A DNA stretch of 64,000 nt from Verrucomicrobiales bacterium (GCA_041917795.1 JAYRWX010000042.1:44981-108980); one strand, 5' to 3'; shown: positions 21,737 to 29,243, counted from the stretch's first letter. Numbers and translations: made by a program. The notes: generated from the sequence alone by a model not told the origin.

Positions 21737-22978
21737 ATGTTCAGTGCCATGTCCCGGATTCCCCCCCGCTTTCATCCCGTCCCCTTCGCTTACCATCAGG
21801 AAGTTGAACTCGAAATCGAGTCGCTAACCAACCTCGGAAAGGGCGTCGGTCGACACGGCGACTGGGTCGTTTTCGTTTCGCATGCCCTGCCCGGCGAGCG
21901 CGTCGTCGCCCGCATTTTCCGCAACAGCCCCACCTACTCCGAGGCCGACCTCGCCGCCGTGATCCGGCCCTCCGAAAACCGGGTCGAGCCCCACTGCCCG
22001 CTCTTCGGCGAATGCGGCGGCTGCCAGTACCAGAACCTCGCCTACCCCGCCCAACTCGAGTGGAAACAGCGCCAGGTCGCCGAGCTGCTCCAGCGCATGG
22101 CCGGGATCGAGCATCCCGTCGCGCCGGTCATCCCCTCGCCCGTGCTCTACGGCTACCGGTCGAAGATCACCCCCCATTTCCAGAAGCCCGAAGGGGGAAA
22201 GATCGGCCCCATCGGCTTTCTCCGCGAAGGCCGCCGCCAGGAGATCCTCGACGTGCCGCGCTGCCCCATCGCCTCGGACTCCATCAACACCGAACTCGAA
22301 AAAGTCCGCCGCGAGGTCCGGGCCAACGCCCGCGCCTACAAGAAAGGCGCCACCCTGCTGCTGCGCGACTCGCGCGACGGCCGCGTCCGCACCGACCCCA
22401 CCGAGATGTGCGAGGAGCAGGTCGGCGACCTCGTCTTTTCCTTCCACGCCGGCGAGTTCTTCCAGAACAATCCCCACATCCTGCCCGCCTTCGCCGGCCA
22501 TGTCACCACCGAGGCCCGCGCCGGCGGTGCCCGCTACCTCGTCGACGCCTATTGCGGGTCCGGACTTTTTTGTCTCAGCGCCGCCTCCGACTTCACCGAG
22601 ACCCTCGGCATCGAGATCAGCGCCTCCTCCGTCGACTGGGCGAATCGCAACGCCAGGGACAACGGCATTGCAAATTGTCGATTCCTCCAGGGCGATGCCG
22701 CCGACCTCTTCGCCGGAGTCACCTTCCCCGCCTCCGAGACCGCGGTCGTCATCGATCCGCCGCGAAAGGGGAGCAGTCCCGATTTCCTGCGGCAGCTCGT
22801 CGCCTTCCGACCGCAGCGCATCGTCTATGTCAGCTGCGATCCCGCCACCCAGATCCGGGATTTGGAACACCTCCGCGACGACTACGAGATCCTGACCATC
22901 CAACCCTTCGACCTCTTTCCGCAAACCCGGCATTTGGAGGTGGTGGTGACCTTGGGGGCGAAGGCCGCGGTGGCGTGA
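21737..22978 (+). CDS. 23S rRNA/tRNA (uracil-C5)-methyltransferase, RlmD/TrmA family (TRAM + 4Fe-4S + SAM MTase)
   Basis: It has a TRAM-like N-terminus, the Cys cluster CPLFGECGGCQYQ, DAYCGSGLF (SAM motif I), and DPPRKG...YVSCDPAT. The start is set at the ATG at 21737. Confidence 0.85.
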   Translation: MFSAMSRIPPRFHPVPFAYHQEVELEIESLTNLGKGVGRHGDWVVFVSHALPGERVVARIFRNSPTYSEADLAAVIRPSENRVEPHCPLFGECGGCQYQNLAYPAQLEWKQRQVAELLQRMAGIEHPVAPVIPSPVLYGYRSKITPHFQKPEGGKIGPIGFLREGRRQEILDVPRCPIASDSINTELEKVRREVRANARAYKKGATLLLRDSRDGRVRTDPTEMCEEQVGDLVFSFHAGEFFQNNPHILPAFAGHVTTEARAGGARYLVDAYCGSGLFCLSAASDFTETLGIEISASSVDWANRNARDNGIANCRFLQGDAADLFAGVTFPASETAVVIDPPRKGSSPDFLRQLVAFRPQRIVYVSCDPATQIRDLEHLRDDYEILTIQPFDLFPQTRHLEVVVTLGAKAAVA

Positions 22979-23468
22979 GACACCAGTGGCCCCGGAGGGG
23001 CCCGAGAAGGTAGTGTTGGAGCGTAGCGGAACCACCGGACCACCGGACCACCACCCGGAAACGAATACCCGCCCCGGAGGGGCGGAAGAATCGGCCCGCA
23101 TCACCAGAGGCCCCGGAGGGGCCCGAGAAGGTAGCCGGTGGTGAAGCGCAGCGGAACCACCGGACCACCGGACCACCACCCGGAAACGAATACCCCGCCC
23201 CGGAGGGGCGGAAGAATCGGCCCGCATCACCAGAGGCCCCGGAGGGGCCAAAGAAGGTAGCCGGTGGTGAAGCGTCGCGGAACCACCGGACCACCGCCCG
23301 GAAACGAATACCCGCCCCGGAGGGGCGGAAGAATCGGCCCACATCACCAGAGGCCCCGGAGGGGCCCGAGAAGGTAGCCGGTGGTGAAGCGCAGCGGAAC
23401 CACCGGACCACCGGACCACCACCCGGAAACGAACACCCCGCCCCGGAGGGGCGGAAGAATCGGCCCGC
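22979..23468. repeat. tandem array of four ~117-126-bp composite REP-like units (periods 121, 126, 117 and 126 bp, measured between CACCAG landmarks)
   Basis: Each unit contains three hairpins. They are GGCCCC-gga-GGGGCC, CCGGTGGT-(13 nt)-ACCACCGG and CGCCCC-gga-GGGGCG. Each unit also has a CACCGGAC micro-repeat that is present twice in units 1, 2 and 4 and once in unit 3. A fifth unit begins at 23469 (ATCACCAGAG) and merges into the 3-prime end of the transposase gene. Confidence 0.9.
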
Positions 23469-23469
23469 A

Positions 23470-23916
23470 TCACCAGAGCCACTTCTCCTCGAACTCCACC
23501 ATCCCGCGCTTCAGAAACTCCAAATACTCCTCCTGAAAAGTTTTTGTCCGATGATGCGCCTCCTGAGTCAGGATGTAGGCCCTCGCGCTTTCAATTCCGG
23601 ACGCTCCGAGGGTGAAGGCGCCGTAGCCCTCCTGCCACGCGAATCCCTGCCAGCCGAGCTCTCTCCGGACCCAGGCCGATGATTCGCTCTTCAACTCCCG
23701 CAAGACTTTCGCGAGACGATGGGTCGGCTTCAATCCTGCGAGCACATGGACGTGGTCGCCGGTTCCGCCGACGGCGTGGGCAAGTCCGTCCAGTCCGCGA
23801 ATCGTGCCTCCGAGATATTCATGAACCCGCGAACGGGTTTCGGGTCCCAGCCAGGGCTCGCGATGTTTCGTGGAGAATACCAGATGGTAGTGCAGCGAGG
23901 TGTGCGTTGACGGCAT
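23470..23916 (-). CDS. IS200/IS605-family Y1 (HUH) transposase, REP-associated (RayT-like)
   Basis: MPSTHTSLHYHLVFSTKHREPWL... carries the HUH motif DHVHVL and the catalytic-Tyr motif AYILTQ. It is 148 aa from the ATG at 23914-23916. There is no tnpB partner, and REP-like units flank it in inverted orientation. Confidence 0.85.
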   Translation of the reverse strand: MPSTHTSLHYHLVFSTKHREPWLGPETRSRVHEYLGGTIRGLDGLAHAVGGTGDHVHVLAGLKPTHRLAKVLRELKSESSAWVRRELGWQGFAWQEGYGAFTLGASGIESARAYILTQEAHHRTKTFQEEYLEFLKRGMVEFEEKWLW

Positions 23917-23930
23917 TCGGGACGCTTCTC

Positions 23931-24025
23931 GCGCCCCTTCCGGGGCGCAACCGCTTCTTTGTGGCGTGGACCGGTGGTTCCGCTGCGCTCCACCACCGGC
24001 TACCTTCTTTCGTCCCTCCGGGACG
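23931..24025. repeat. single inverted REP-like unit upstream of the RayT-like gene
   Basis: The reverse complement of 23955-24025 aligns by eye with the array unit (CGTCCCGGAGGGACG...GAAGGTAGCCGGTGGTGGAGCGCAGCGGAACCACCGGTCC). Confidence 0.8.
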
Positions 24026-24257
24026 GTTCGCTGCGATGCCAGCATCCGCATGGAGTCTGGACATTTCCAACTCCTGCGGATCGAGCAGGGTTACCGTGTT
24101 GAATGACGATTTTGTCCCGCACCCATCGACGACGGTCTGCCAGGAAAATCCTTGTCAGGACGCGGGTTTTTTACGATTCTCCGGGGAAGTTCCTTCGGTG
24201 ATGTTGTTTGGCGGAGGGATTTGGAGCAAGAACTTTTGGAGCAAACAAATACGGAAA

Positions 24258-25160
24258 ATGCCCGAGAACGGAATTCGAAGCACATACTCTCAAAGCCCGT
24301 TCCAAATTCACATGTGTGATGATGAAGGTGTGATATCGACAGGTTCGGCCTTCTTATACGATTTTGAAGGCGACACGTTCATCATTACGAATTGGCACAA
24401 TTTTAGTGGACGGCACTTCTTGACCCGAGAGCCACTTTGTAAATCTCGCAGAACTTTTCCGCTCTTCATCAACGCAAAACTCGCCTCATTCATATTTAAA
24501 GGCGAGACTTTGGCAAACGGATCGTTCACCACTGCTGCAACACGTGTGGAAATATTCTGCGACCGCGAACCACTTTGGTATGAGCATCCGATTTTAGGAT
24601 CTAAGTGCGACCTGGTAGCGCTCCCCTTTCAGCGCCCAGATACGTGCCCGGAATTCATGAATACTCCGGTCAACAAAATTAGCAGAGATAGAATACCAAT
24701 TGAGCCGGGGGGTGTGGTGTTCATAATTGGATTTCCAAAGTCGATAAGTGTTGGGATAGGACTTCCAATTTGGAAGTCTGGTTATATCGCTTCTGAGCCG
24801 CATTTTGGAGTCACAATTGATGGTGAAATTTGCTCATACGGAGGGCTCGCCGGCGGAACGAATTTACCGGCATTTTTCATCGATTCGCTAACACGCGAGG
24901 GAATGTCGGGATCCCCCGTATTTGCTAAATATACCGGGGCTTGGGACCAGAGTGATCCGTACGCGGGGCTTGATTTCGATTCACCAGAGTTTTGGAAACG
25001 AAATGACGTTGTTCTTGGCGGCTCGGGAATGGAATTTATTGGGTGTTACAGCGGTCGAATAGGAGCTCGCGAAGAGGGAGCTGCCCTCGGTTTGTGTTGG
25101 CCTGTAAGCGTAATAAATGAGATATGTTCATCGAAATCACGGGCAAGCAACCCTCACTAA
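24258..25160 (+). CDS. trypsin-like (S1/chymotrypsin-fold) serine protease, no signal peptide
   Basis: The catalytic residues appear in canonical H-D-S order: ITNWHNF (His), KCDLVAL (Asp) and TREGMSGSPVF (GxSGxP Ser). The region is AT-richer, for example 26/60 G+C in line 24301-24360. The start is uncertain, with in-frame ATGs at 24201, 24258 and 24312. The ORF-track start at 23679 is antisense to the transposase. Confidence 0.75.
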   Translation: MPENGIRSTYSQSPFQIHMCDDEGVISTGSAFLYDFEGDTFIITNWHNFSGRHFLTREPLCKSRRTFPLFINAKLASFIFKGETLANGSFTTAATRVEIFCDREPLWYEHPILGSKCDLVALPFQRPDTCPEFMNTPVNKISRDRIPIEPGGVVFIIGFPKSISVGIGLPIWKSGYIASEPHFGVTIDGEICSYGGLAGGTNLPAFFIDSLTREGMSGSPVFAKYTGAWDQSDPYAGLDFDSPEFWKRNDVVLGGSGMEFIGCYSGRIGAREEGAALGLCWPVSVINEICSSKSRASNPH

Positions 25161-25424
25161 CAACTCTAACAGGTTGCGTCATGAAGGGGCTTGCACCCCT
25201 GATTCGCCGCGACATCCACCGTCCTCCCTACCCAACAGGGTCAGATCGAACATTCAACCCTGTTGAATCCCGTCCTTGGCCCGGTGTTGCGCCAAATTTC
25301 CACCGGAGTCGGGCGCCATCACCCCGCCCCTCCCGCCCTCCCATCCCGACATCTAGCTAGTCCGCCTCTAAAGAATCCCAAGAAAAGCTTCCTATCGTCG
25401 GGGGATTTTGCTAGACGCGTTTCC

Positions 25425-26000
25425 ATGCCGACGCCGTTGAAATGGAACTCGGGAGTGAAGTGGAATTCGTCCGCACCGGGTGCTGTATGGAATGGCACGG
25501 TCAACCCAATACAAAAAACCATGACCCAAGACCTGATCACCCTCGACATCTCCGCGGCCGACTGGACCGCCATCGACGCCGCCCTGACCGTGCTGGAGGA
25601 AAAACTCGCCCCCAAGCTGCTCGACCTGACCATCGACCAGCGCAAGGAGCTCACCAAGATGGGGAACAAGAGCGAGGCTTTCGCCCGCCAGACCCTGATC
25701 ACCGCCCGGACCAATGTCGGCAAGCTGCCCGCCGATGCCGCCGCCGATCTGACCACCGAGGAGGCCGACCTGGCCGCGCTCGAGGCGCTGCGTCCCCGGC
25801 TTGCCCGCCTGACGGCGCTCGCCGAAAAATCCGACGACACCGAGCTGGCGCTCGGCAGCGACATCATGGTGTTTGCCCTGACCGTCTACCGCATCCTCAA
25901 GGCGGTGGGGGCCGGCGGCGCCCTCGACGAACTGAAAGCCCAGATGGGTGCCCGTTTCCAACGCCGCGCCCAGCGCGACCCCGCCCCACCCTCCGCCTGA
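25425..26000 (+). CDS. hypothetical protein (helical, Ala/Leu/Asp-rich)
   Basis: This is the high-GC part of ORF 25263..26000, and the long overlapping minus-strand ORF looks like a Gly/Arg-rich antisense shadow. Candidate starts are at 25425 (MPTPLKWNSG...) and 25521 (MTQDLITLDIS...). No family was recognised. Confidence 0.5.
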   Translation: MPTPLKWNSGVKWNSSAPGAVWNGTVNPIQKTMTQDLITLDISAADWTAIDAALTVLEEKLAPKLLDLTIDQRKELTKMGNKSEAFARQTLITARTNVGKLPADAAADLTTEEADLAALEALRPRLARLTALAEKSDDTELALGSDIMVFALTVYRILKAVGAGGALDELKAQMGARFQRRAQRDPAPPSA

Positions 26001-26061
26001 TTCCGCGAAGGGGCGTCCGGAGCTCCGGTTCGTGCAAAATGCATTAAACGCAAGCCTCCGG

Positions 26062-26122
26062 CCCTTGCGCGCAAAGCCAAAAGCCACGCCAACGGAGCTC
26101 GGAGCCTTGCGCGCAAAGCCAA
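26062..26122. repeat. 19-bp perfect direct repeat CCTTGCGCGCAAAGCCAAA (26062-26080 and 26104-26122), each copy containing the 10-bp palindrome TTGCGCGCAA
   Basis: Read directly from the sequence. The copies are 42 bp apart start to start, in the gap between the two small ORFs. Confidence 0.85.
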
Positions 26123-26216
26123 AGATTCTCTGACTTCCGAGTTGCCTCCGATTCTCTCCGGCGATCTCCGCTGCGCCCCGATTCCGACTCCTGACTCCTA
26201 CCCCCCATCTCCGACC

Positions 26217-26489
26217 ATGTCCTTCGACCCCAATCTGCCCCAGGAAGGCACCGACCTCGATGCCGCCGAAATGCGGAGCCAACTGAACGGCCTCCGCGAA
26301 CTGATCGACGCCGTCCCCGGCGAGGTGACCAACGCCCAACTCGCCGCGGCGATCTTCGGGACGAGCAACAACAGCAATAGCGTCGCCACCCTCGACACCG
26401 CCCCGAACAATCCGCCGACGGTGGATGATTTCGAGATGATGCGCGGCAAGCTGAACGAACTGATCCTCGCGCTGCGGAGGAATCCTTAG
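26217..26489 (+). CDS. small hypothetical protein (90 aa)
   Basis: MSFDPNLPQEGTDLDAAEMRSQLNGLRELIDAVPGEV... The start is set at the ATG at 26217, which is codon 26 of ORF 26142..26489. No family was recognised. Confidence 0.45.
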   Translation: MSFDPNLPQEGTDLDAAEMRSQLNGLRELIDAVPGEVTNAQLAAAIFGTSNNSNSVATLDTAPNNPPTVDDFEMMRGKLNELILALRRNP

Positions 26490-26687
26490 CGCGCGCGGTC
26501 TGGGGCGGTTGGTGCTTGGTGCTTCGTCCTTCCACCGGCGGTCGGGGCTCGGTGGAGCGATGAGATCACCGGCTGGGTCGGCTCCAACGAGACTTTCGGC
26601 TTGATGGTGGTAGCGGGAGCGGGCAGGATTCGATTCGCCCACACTTTGGTGTGACTAAACAACGTTAGGCTGAATACTTAAATCATT

Positions 26688-27086
26688 ATGAGTCTTAATC
26701 CTCTCACCCTTCTCGAAAAGGCTATCAACGAACACGGTAGTTCCGTCATCCTTAAGGAACGCCTCGGTCTTGCTGCCGATCAGTTCAAGCAACTCGAGAA
26801 GGAAAATGGGGAACTTAAGAAGGAGAATGATGACCTTCGTGCAAAACTGGCCGAACTTACAGCCAAGCTTGAAGCCCAAACGATTCCCGAAAATTACATT
26901 AAGAAGAGGGGAGTCCTTTTCCTGCGGAACCCTGACGGGAAGATTGATCCTGACGCTTACTGTCCTACCTGCAAGTCTTCCATGTTCAGCCTCATGGGGG
27001 CGACACCGTTGAAATGTAAAAAATGCGGCGAGGTCGCTGGGATCACGGGGGCCGAAATTCCTGACATCATTGCTGCCATCCAATGA
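26688..27086 (+). CDS. coiled-coil plus C-terminal zinc-ribbon protein (132 aa)
   Basis: The heptad-rich segment is QFKQLEKENGELKKENDDLRAKLAELTAKLEA. It is followed by CPTC-(15 aa)-CKKC. The region is AT-richer, at 30/60 G+C in line 26761-26820. Confidence 0.65.
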   Translation: MSLNPLTLLEKAINEHGSSVILKERLGLAADQFKQLEKENGELKKENDDLRAKLAELTAKLEAQTIPENYIKKRGVLFLRNPDGKIDPDAYCPTCKSSMFSLMGATPLKCKKCGEVAGITGAEIPDIIAAIQ

Positions 27087-27168
27087 CCCCGCCGAACAAG
27101 ACGGCGGACTCAAGGGCTTACAGCCCTGAGTCGCTCGACGTTAACTGAAAACACTTTCCTGAAGCTGT

Positions 27169-27984
27169 ATGATTGAAGAGATTACGATTGATTCGTGGGA
27201 AGCCCTCAATTCCGCATTGTTTGCTGACACTGAGAATAAGCGCACTCATAGGTTCAGATCGAACTTCGCGTATCGAGGCGTGTCAAATAAAGACTACACT
27301 CTAAAGCCTGGAATTGCTCGACTTGTGCCTCCCTACCCAGGGATGGAAGAGAATCTTTTGAAGCAGTTCAAGAAGTATGCTGCACGGGACGTTGTTGAGC
27401 GAGACACTGATTGGCACTGGTTGACAGTTGCCCAGCATCACGGTCTGCCAACTCGACTTTTGGACTGGTCATACTCTCCGTTGATCGCAACGCATTTTGC
27501 CACGGCGAATCTTGTATCCAGAACCACGCCCGATGCTGCAATTTGGAAGGTGAATTTTGCCCAAGTTCATGAACTTCTGCAGGCCAAAGAAACAAAGGTT
27601 TTGAAGGAGTTTGGCTCAAAGATCTTCTCAATTGATGCCTTATGCGTCGGGATTCCTAGCCTCGATGCTCTAAACGGCCATTCCTCCTCATCGAGCGAAG
27701 TCGCTGTGTTCTTTGAACCCCCCTCGATTGATGACCGAATAATCAACCAATTCGCGTATTTTTCGGCGTTGAGTGACCCCTTTTTGGCTTTTGATGATTG
27801 GCTAGCTCTACCGAGTGTTAGCGCCAAGGTTGATGCGAAGAAGATCATTATTCCATCGGCACTCAAATGGGAGTTCCGAGACAAGCTTGATCAGTGCAAT
27901 ATTAATGAAAGAGTATTGATGCCGGGTCTAGATGGGCTTTGCGCATGGCTGAAGCGCCATTATACGCCGTTAGCAAAACCATAA
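27169..27984 (+). CDS. FRG-domain protein (271 aa)
   Basis: FAYRGVSNKDYTLKPGIAR carries the (F/Y)RG motif, and WLTVAQHHGLPTRLLDWSYSPLIATHFA is the second conserved FRG-domain block. The region is AT-richer, at 30/60 G+C in line 27301-27360. Confidence 0.75.
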   Translation: MIEEITIDSWEALNSALFADTENKRTHRFRSNFAYRGVSNKDYTLKPGIARLVPPYPGMEENLLKQFKKYAARDVVERDTDWHWLTVAQHHGLPTRLLDWSYSPLIATHFATANLVSRTTPDAAIWKVNFAQVHELLQAKETKVLKEFGSKIFSIDALCVGIPSLDALNGHSSSSSEVAVFFEPPSIDDRIINQFAYFSALSDPFLAFDDWLALPSVSAKVDAKKIIIPSALKWEFRDKLDQCNINERVLMPGLDGLCAWLKRHYTPLAKP

Positions 27985-28216
27985 CGCAGGTTCCAGACCG
28001 AAGTGCAAGGTCACCTGATTTTCGAAGAGTCCTGCCTGAGTCCTGAATCCTTGTCGCCTCCGGTGTCGGTGCTCAGGCATCCGGCCGCTCACAACGCCTG
28101 AACCGATCGACCGGGATCCCCGCCAGTCCCATCCCCGCCGCCACCCGCGCCAGCCAAGTTACCGCTTGCGTCGCCGCCGGTTCCGCAGCACTCTTGCCAC
28201 GTTCTTCCGGACATCC

Positions 28217-28287
28217 GCGGGTGTCGTTCAATGGTAGGACGCGAGCTTCCCAAGCTTGAGACCGGGGTTCGATTCCCCGTACCCGCA
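28217..28287 (+). tRNA. tRNA-Gly (anticodon CCC), CCA not encoded
   Basis: The acceptor stem is GCGGGTG/TACCCGC. The D-arm region reads TCGTTCAATGGTAGGACG and the anticodon loop is CTTCCCAAG. The T-arm is GGGGTTCGATTCCCC and the discriminator is A at 28287. Confidence 0.9.
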
Positions 28288-29243
28288 TGCCTTCGATCCC
28301 GCATTCGTATTCCTTCGATCCGACTTACGGGTACACGCTCGATCAGCTGCTCGCGGTCGACGCGCCGGAGCCTCCTCCGGGGTTCGAGGACTTCTGGAGA
28401 GCCCGCTACGATGCTGCGCTGGCGGTCGACCCGGCTCCGGCCCTGCGTGAGATCCCCGGGGGCACGCCGCGCTGGCGGGTGGCGGAACTGGGCTACCGCA
28501 CCACCGACGGCCAGCCGATCCGGGGTTGGGCCCTGCTGCCGCGCGAGGGCGAGGTGAAGCGGGGTTTCATCTGGGGCCACGGCTACGGGGGGATGGACGG
28601 GCCCTGGTTCGACCTGCCCTTCGCCGATGCGGTGATTTTTTTCCCCTGCATGCGGGGCATCTCGCAAAGCCGGCGTCCGGGGGTGGCGGCGGATCCGCTC
28701 GGGCACGTGCTCCATGGGATCGAGGACCGCGACCGCTACATCCACGGGGCCTGCGTCGAGGATCTCTGGCTGGCGGTGACGTCCCTGATCCAACTCTTTC
28801 CGCAGACGGCGGGGCGCATCGGTCTGCTCGGGATCAGCTTCGGCGGTGGCATCGGCATGCTGGCGCTGCCCTGGGATGATCGGATCGCGCGGGGCCACTT
28901 CGAGGTGCCGAGCTTCGGCCACCATCCCCTGCGTCTCACCCTGCCGACCCACGGCAGCGGTGCGGCGGTGGCGGTCTACGAAAAGCGCAAGGGAGGCGCG
29001 ATGGAGACGCTGCGCTATCACGATGCGGCGACGGCGGCACGCTTCACCCGGCAAGCGGTGCACATCGCTGCGGCGCTTTTCGATCCCTTCGTGGCTCCGC
29101 CGGGGCAATTCGCGATCTACAACGCGCTGCCCGGAGAGCGGAAGCTGTATCTGCTCGAGGCGGGACACCATGACTATCCGGCGGCGGCCCGGCAACGGGC
29201 GGAGGTCCTCGCGGAAGTTGACGATTTTTTTTCTGGCATGTGA
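28287..29243 (+). CDS. acetyl xylan esterase / cephalosporin-C deacetylase family (AXE1) alpha/beta hydrolase
   Basis: The N-terminus reads YSFDPTYGYTLDQLLAVDAPEPPPGFEDFWRARY, which is AXE1-like. The nucleophile elbow is GISFGGG. The ATG at 28287 shares its A with the tRNA-Gly discriminator. Confidence 0.75.
   Translation: MPSIPHSYSFDPTYGYTLDQLLAVDAPEPPPGFEDFWRARYDAALAVDPAPALREIPGGTPRWRVAELGYRTTDGQPIRGWALLPREGEVKRGFIWGHGYGGMDGPWFDLPFADAVIFFPCMRGISQSRRPGVAADPLGHVLHGIEDRDRYIHGACVEDLWLAVTSLIQLFPQTAGRIGLLGISFGGGIGMLALPWDDRIARGHFEVPSFGHHPLRLTLPTHGSGAAVAVYEKRKGGAMETLRYHDAATAARFTRQAVHIAAALFDPFVAPPGQFAIYNALPGERKLYLLEAGHHDYPAAARQRAEVLAEVDDFFSGM

Follow-up and report, generated by a model that had tools for sequence, protein, structure and literature searches.

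Bacteria carry protease-based abortive-infection effectors, for example Lit or the trypsin-like effector domains of multi-domain defence proteins. The PDC systems are candidates that were derived by 'guilt by embedding' (bioRxiv 10.1101/2024.01.29.577857), and PMC9503650 places the Frg domain in the ADP-ribosyltransferase superfamily and suggests that it may be an NADase effector. In this study, we analysed a 64,000-nucleotide (nt) stretch of a Verrucomicrobiales bacterium (GCA_041917795.1, JAYRWX010000042.1:44981-108980), the whole of which is called the window, in which a trypsin-like protease gene and an FRG-domain gene lie in the spacer between the methyltransferase gene rlmD and a tRNA-Gly(CCC) gene. 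An earlier reading, made from the sequence alone (the sequence-only reading), had taken positions 24090-28060 for a small, mosaic defence or accessory islet bracketed by a 10-bp direct repeat, the 10-mer AATCCTTGTC. The accessory, lineage-specific nature of this DNA was borne out by comparison with relatives, its partly foreign composition by the G+C content at third codon positions (GC3) and its defence-type genes by a match to the candidate family PDC-S15. Its being a single bracketed unit was not borne out: the modules stand apart elsewhere, the central block is host-like in its codons, and the 10-mer is statistically marginal. We believe that the insert is probably a stepwise accretion of unrelated cassettes upstream of a tRNA promoter, the low-G+C ones being probable stand-alone anti-phage effectors.

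An rlmD scan of species-representative genomes yielded 80 loci, and the closest rlmD proteins (75-82% identical) came from Verrucomicrobiales and Akkermansiaceae metagenome-assembled genomes. In the four closest loci that retain the tRNA (L003, L005, L006 and L007; rlmD 80-82% identical at the protein level), tRNA-Gly(CCC) starts 85-115 bp past the rlmD stop, and the segment is absent. The distance in the window is 5.2 kb, so the DNA here is lineage-specific, and the extra DNA therefore takes in a repetitive extragenic palindromic (REP) array and a RayT transposase gene with its inverted REP copy, which the sequence-only reading had placed outside the segment. On the right-hand side, alignment of the tRNA upstream regions showed that the conserved promoter-like spacer 5' of the tRNA can be traced in the window no further left than about 28157; therefore 28056-28155 is also non-ancestral. 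The extent of 24090-28060 was thus too small: the DNA absent from the relatives runs from 22979 to about 28155, and the comparison redrew the accessory region so that the RayT/REP unit and about 100 bp past the right repeat are included.

Like tRNA-linked defence islands, the insert is a lineage-specific stretch of foreign composition that carries defence-type genes beside a tRNA and is absent from relatives. Unlike them, it is placed, as had been read, 5' of the tRNA, on the promoter side, and has neither an integrase nor a tRNA-derived attachment (att) repeat: the 10-mer is not tRNA sequence, and no direct repeats derive from the tRNA 3' end. Neither the segment nor the roughly 10 kb to each side of it contains an integrase or recombinase, though the Y1/HUH transposase RayT adjoins on the left. 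The site also differs from tRNA-linked hotspots in that it is not recurrent among the 20 relatives sampled. A recurrent insertion hotspot was considered and rejected, as none of these 20 showed a G+C dip after rlmD comparable to that of the window.

The G+C content of the window is 0.631 over 64 kb, and the insert holds two low-G+C blocks around a genome-like centre. The G+C contents of positions 24100-25165, 25166-26640 and 26641-28045 were 0.480, 0.637 and 0.485, respectively, and a recount of the four 60-nt lines sampled earlier returned exactly the reported 26, 30, 30 and 40 G+C of 60. In a sliding-window analysis of the 64 kb, G+C fell below 0.56 only in 1-kb windows of the two low-G+C blocks, which also had the largest tetranucleotide distances. 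The GC3 values of the protease, zinc-ribbon and FRG genes were 0.46, 0.55 and 0.50, respectively, against 0.81-0.86 in host genes, whereas those of ORF2 and ORF3 (open reading frames 2 and 3) were host-like, at 0.84 and 0.85. The protease, zinc-ribbon and FRG genes are thus the only segment genes with foreign codon composition. As had been read, none of the five segment genes has a housekeeping identity: they encode a trypsin-like protease, two ORF products without a family match, a coiled-coil zinc-ribbon protein and an FRG-domain protein. All five are intact, and there are no other phage genes in the segment. Wherever the protease, ORF2-ORF3 or FRG module was encountered in the other genomes sampled, the remaining two were missing, and none of the fetched loci holds two of them.

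The match of the protease to Pfam Trypsin_2 lies above the gathering score but is marginal (29.4 bits against a cut-off of 27.6), and phrog_7688 is matched over its full length (E=5e-19). The catalytic triad H47 (TNWH), D118 (CDxVA) and S217 (GMSGSP) is in canonical order and invariant in the 21 sequences of alignment A1. Secretion-related families gave no match, and the protein is predicted to be cytoplasmic. The database gene call is 374 aa long, starts near 24036 and runs through the RayT-proximal spacer. Of the 21 aligned family members, 19 start at MPE, among them the window protein, so the true start is at 24258. Members of the family, of about 300 aa, share 55-64% identity across Bacteroidota, Gammaproteobacteria and this genome. 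One homologue stands alone in a Bacteroidota lineage, and another is the lone insert that separates a gpK-like from a gpJ-like tail gene in a lambda-like Pseudomonas chlororaphis prophage (L090). A total of 72 plasmids, most of them conjugative ones from Klebsiella, carry distant relatives; full-length ones, 31% identical, were seen on 66 Klebsiella plasmids. On one Klebsiella pneumoniae plasmid (L107, NZ_CP146997.1), the relative lies in an IS26-flanked accessory patch and adjoins a gene for a dGTP triphosphohydrolase; the dGTPase family includes known anti-phage members. Single-sequence scans of viral contigs with the protease, FRG or ORF2 gave no matches. The window protease resembles protease-based abortive-infection effectors in having an intact triad, no secretion-family match and a family that resides on mobile DNA. 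It is unlike them in lacking a sensor domain, a partner gene and sequence kinship to Lit; a defence role would be putative.

The FRG-domain protein scored 92.7 bits with Pfam PF08867 (cut-off 25; E=2.7e-26), and the PADLOC profile PDLC04938 of PDC-S15 was matched near full length (E=2.4e-51; residues 24-266 against positions 59-271/276). It has all of the motifs YRG, HHGLPTRLLDW, FFEPP and NQFAYFS, which are invariant columns in the 26-sequence alignment A3. As is the case for PDC-S15, FRG is solitary in every other context examined: alone at a module junction of a Mu-like phage, on a Spirosoma plasmid, and within a PLD/TIR/DUF4062 defence island of Verrucomicrobium sp. BvORR106. Both the protease and the FRG gene resemble phage 'morons' in that homologues are lone genes in phages or prophages; the window genes differ in being chromosomal, with no phage genes around them. 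An FRG protein 96% identical to that of the window (87.5% at the nt level) was found elsewhere, with a Sel1-like gene upstream instead of the zinc-ribbon gene and with unrelated flanks. Of 103 nt differences between these two copies, 84 are at third codon positions, which indicates purifying selection. The restriction of DNA homology with that locus (L095) to the coding sequence was considered as a cassette boundary and rejected as proof, since at the 31% divergence of third positions any non-coding flanks would already defy alignment. The usable evidence on FRG context is the different upstream gene.

The window FRG departs from the other PDC-S15 contexts by having the small zinc-ribbon gene 82 bp upstream, an arrangement not seen with the other FRG genes examined. 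Relatives of the zinc-ribbon protein were not matched in plasmids and phages, viral contigs gave one match to the coiled coil only, an exact look-up of the protein gave no match, and tblastn found no relative beside any FRG homologue in the fetched loci. A two-gene system of zinc-ribbon protein and FRG is therefore not claimed. Exactly these genes are found in just one further public contig, Logan SRR26835159_45646 (L001/L002), which is 11 kb long, 100% identical to the window, and begins at 27105, within the 82-bp spacer between the zinc-ribbon and FRG genes. Its start could be an assembly accident or could mark polymorphic DNA upstream of FRG in that population. The weak, non-significant Foldseek matches at the top of the list for the FRG model are enriched in ADP-ribosyltransferase toxins, among them TreTu/TreX, cholera toxin, pertussis toxin and DarT1. 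These are consistent with the published ADP-ribosyltransferase assignment without confirming it.

Searches of four libraries gave no family match for ORF2 or ORF3, and the Pfam, NCBIfam, PADLOC, PHROGs and PDB sequence searches for an ORF2 function were all negative. The AlphaFold2 model of the ORF2 core (25521-26000) is all-helical, with a pLDDT of 91.5, and had no Foldseek match in PDB or BFVD. Members of the Verrucomicrobia type add a W-rich N-terminal extension (MPxPLxWNSGxxWN). The family is widespread, being found in Verrucomicrobia-like contigs, Gemmataceae, Lysobacter and Rhodanobacter, and in four contexts ORF2 occurs without the protease or FRG. In one of these (L086/L087), the ORF2 homologue is followed by a 253-aa collagen-repeat protein (positions 9287-10048 of L086), whose N and C ends match ORF3. 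The ORF3 family comprises 647 representative clusters. Its members have conserved modules at the N end (about 35 aa) and the C end (about 55 aa), and between them a variable middle (0-250 aa) that often consists of collagen-like G-x-y repeats; at least 6 G-x-y repeats are present in about half of the best 150. Collagen-like repeats occur in many phage fibre proteins.

Directly 3' of ORF2-family genes there are repeat arrays with a period of 21 bp and the core GCGCGCAA/GCGAAGC. That of L089 (7616-7834) has 10.4 copies, and that of L086 (8659-9035) has about 18 units and forms a long imperfect hairpin (z=-3.3); the Lysobacter locus L088 has none, and the arrays had no Rfam match. The ORF2-ORF3 spacer of the window holds two GCGCGCAA-containing units, which look like a vestige of the arrays in L086 and L089. 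One idea, which we regard as improbable, is that ORF2, the 21-bp array and ORF3 form an undescribed, widespread genetic system. Its siting between two candidate defence cassettes might then point to a role in phage interaction. Separately, and likewise improbably, the 10-mer might be a true insertion scar, left by a non-autonomous element of 3.9 kb that was mobilised in trans.

The coordinates of all features are collected in Table 1. The RayT gene encodes a Y1 HUH transposase with REP hairpins in inverted orientation on its flanks, as in described REP/RayT loci. The copies in the 64 kb are only the four tandem ones downstream of RayT and the single inverted one upstream. The locus differs from REP/RayT loci in that RayT neighbours foreign cassettes, of which it is not a part, and nothing ties it to their acquisition. 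Rfam models run on 22500-28700 returned the tRNA and a below-threshold match of Acido-Lenti-1 on the inverted REP (25.1 bits against a gathering score of 37), and a promoter/terminator scan showed no enrichment apart from the REP hairpins. Homology with the relatives also ends at the 3' end of tRNA-Gly. CCA is encoded after ...CCCGCA in L003, L006 and L007, whereas the window has TGC instead, and the ATG of axe takes in the final base of the tRNA. An imperfect direct repeat of 22 nt (28276-28297 and 28298-28319) runs across the end of the tRNA. The relatives' loci lack the genes that follow the tRNA in the window (axe, an esterase and a 578-aa ORF), and this side could be a second rearrangement or insertion.

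Table 1. Features in and beside the rlmD-tRNA-Gly insert (window positions)
Feature	Position	Strand	Remarks or basis
REP-like tandem array, four units of ~117-126 bp, each with a G+C-rich hairpin	22980..23480	-	Repeat analysis; absent 3' of rlmD in relatives
RayT-type Y1/HUH transposase (IS200-like)	23470..23916	-	Pfam Y1_Tnp E=9e-22; NCBIfam transpos_IS200
Single inverted REP copy, upstream of RayT	23966-24022		Inverted repeats I1-I4
10-mer AATCCTTGTC, left copy	24147..24156	+	~100 bp upstream of protease start codon
Solitary trypsin-like serine protease, 300 aa, GC3 0.46	24258..25160	+	Pfam Trypsin_2; phrog_7688
ORF2, all-helical family, W-rich N-terminal extension, GC3 0.84	25425..26000	+	Alignment A2; AlphaFold2
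Two 26-nt repeat units, each with perfect palindrome TTGCGCGCAA, 42 bp apart	26056..26123	.	Repeat analysis
ORF3, collagen-repeat-free form of N-module/variable middle/C-module family, GC3 0.85	26217..26489	+	Family comparison
Coiled-coil + C-terminal CxxC...CxxC zinc-ribbon protein, 132 aa, GC3 0.55	26688..27086	+	Coiled-coil matches; phrog_1244 E=2e-5 (weak)
FRG-domain protein, 271 aa, GC3 0.50	27169..27984	+	Pfam FRG; PADLOC PDC-S15
10-mer AATCCTTGTC, right copy	28046..28055	+	In loop of stable hairpin, ~60 nt past FRG stop
Non-ancestral stretch, no counterpart in relatives	28056..28156	.	~100 bp, ~70% G+C, between right 10-mer and tRNA spacer
tRNA-Gly(CCC)	28217..28287	+	Ancestral right-hand neighbour of rlmD

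In the accretion that we favour, the rlmD-tRNA-Gly spacer would have grown from about 85-115 bp, as in the nearest relatives, to about 5.2 kb by taking up at least four unrelated pieces. These would be the REP array with its RayT transposase; a single-gene cassette with the predicted cytoplasmic trypsin-like serine protease; a host-like two-gene module of ORF2 and the repeat-free collagen-family ORF3 with the vestigial repeat element between them; and a low-G+C cassette with the small zinc-ribbon gene and the FRG-domain gene. The two low-G+C cassettes were probably drawn from the phage and plasmid gene pool. The spacer would have been permissive, and illegitimate or short-homology recombination, rather than a site-specific integrase, would have brought the cassettes in. 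The protease and FRG would act as stand-alone anti-phage effectors, like 'morons' on prophages and plasmids. The likeliest action of FRG would be NAD+ consumption or ADP-ribosylation on infection, and that of the protease would be the infection-triggered cleavage of a host or phage protein.

The sequence-only reading had offered the 10-mer as a candidate target-site duplication or att core, in which case 24157-28045 (3.9 kb) would be one mobile islet brought in by a single insertion, its recombinase acting in trans or since lost. We consider this decidedly improbable. The two copies lie where they had been reported, are the only ones in the window and sit at both outer G+C transitions. AATCCTTGTC is also not a frequent genomic word: the fetched loci hold 4 copies in 1.55 Mb, about the random expectation, and never beside a cargo gene. 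The chance of a shared 10-mer, put earlier at about 1 in 100, was understated. For a shared direct word of at least 10 nt, p was 0.013 in 120-bp junction windows under a first-order Markov null, the most favourable to a single insertion, 0.035 in the full junction regions of 206 bp and 232 bp, and 0.029 in random pairs of 120-bp windows from this sequence, all before correction for multiple testing. Counting either orientation about doubles p, four composition boundaries make six pairings, and the adjusted p is roughly 0.05-0.2. Just inside the copies, direct reading finds (C)AGGAC (24156-24161) and, inverted, GTCCT(G) (28040-28045), which might be taken for insertion ends; at only 5-6 bp with a 1-nt offset this match is too short for terminal inverted repeats, none of which lie immediately inside the 10-mers, and no inverted word common to the junction windows is longer than 7 nt. 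Between the 10-mers, no ORF of the five matches a transposase, RayT lies outside, and no integrase is nearby. The empty-site 24-mer CCAGGAAAATCCTTGTCGCCTCCG, made of the left flank, one 10-mer and the right flank, had no exact match in a metagenome collection from which conspecifics are absent. The right copy does not abut ancestral DNA, being separated from the conserved tRNA upstream spacer by about 100 bp of non-ancestral DNA, and the two copies differ in structural setting, the left one not being in a stable hairpin. The hairpin around the right copy (28020-28090, GCCUGAG...CUCAGGC, -25.7 kcal/mol, z=-2.35) lies just 3' of the FRG stop and, having no T-run, is not a canonical intrinsic terminator. 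With the modules never together elsewhere and a central third of host-like codon usage, we believe that the 10-mer at the segment edges is more likely coincidental than an insertion scar.

A second possibility retains a common origin for the foreign genes only: one low-G+C islet with the protease, zinc-ribbon and FRG genes came first and was later split by the host-like ORF2-ORF3, which would make two events and not three or four. The low blocks are almost equal in G+C and similar in GC3, and the ORF2-ORF3 pair recurs in another genome, but a similar G+C content says little about a shared donor, in none of the other contexts sampled is the protease a neighbour of FRG, and the central block has no convincing repeats or ends. 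The best repeat around it is a chance-expected 9-mer, and repeats bracketing either this block or the whole 5.2-kb insert are chance-level 7-10-mers only. We therefore judge this course of events unlikely. That the REP/RayT unit created or attracted the insertions, with REP hairpins or single-strand cleavage by RayT serving as the recombination substrate that captured the cassettes, seems most improbable. The unit stands directly beside the first foreign cassette and is itself absent at this site in the relatives; adjacency is the sole basis of the proposal, however, and no REP copies or REP-like hairpins are found at the internal junctions or the right end. IS200/IS605-type enzymes are not known to make a target-site duplication, so such capture would leave the 10-mer unexplained. 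Finally, the cassettes may have been acquired and yet be selfish or phage-derived passengers without host benefit, namely a prophage protease remnant, a toxin-like FRG and a tail-fibre-like ORF3. The protease and FRG families match PHROGs of unknown function and occur inside phages or prophages, PDC-S15 is a candidate family only, and ORF3 relatives often have the collagen-like repeats of phage fibre proteins. Against this stand the intactness of all five ORFs, the conservation of the protease triad and FRG motifs, the purifying selection between the FRG copies, the place of FRG in a clear defence island of another Verrucomicrobium, and the lack of other phage genes in the segment, and we hold the passenger explanation to be somewhat unlikely.

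Several observations weigh against the stepwise accretion of anti-phage cassettes that we prefer. The 10-mer is unique in the window and stands at both outer composition transitions, so coincidence is unproven, and the near-equal G+C of the low blocks (0.480 and 0.485) also fits one foreign islet that was later split. Synteny with the relatives is limited to glgB-rlmD(-tRNA) and even the nearest comparators share no more than about 80% identity in rlmD, so the order and number of insertion events cannot be reconstructed. For a conspecific genome, exact look-ups of FRG and axe gave just the one 11-kb Logan contig, and an axe scan of JGI metagenomes gave only relatives 53-57% identical. As regards function, PDC-S15 is a candidate defence family and the defence role of every gene here is putative. 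The protease matches PDC-S45 over just about 80 residues (residues 154-231 against profile positions 154-217/293, E=2e-7, PADLOC) rather than full length. The FRG AlphaFold2 model (pLDDT 82) had no significant fold match, its best Foldseek match in PDB having E=0.16, and the zinc-ribbon gene may or may not belong with FRG.

A 10-bp repeat at two composition boundaries is no evidence for a single insertion, as its empirical chance here is about 1-4%. We regard the insert as a routine case of small defence-type genes from the phage and plasmid pool gathering in a permissive spacer of an uncultured verrucomicrobium, and the ORF2/array/ORF3 module is the sole element here that might repay further work. 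The locus adds one genomic context for two poorly studied candidate families, FRG/PDC-S15 and the solitary trypsin-like protease of the phrog_7688 type. If it is true that FRG or the protease protects against phage, these single-gene defence candidates would be validated.

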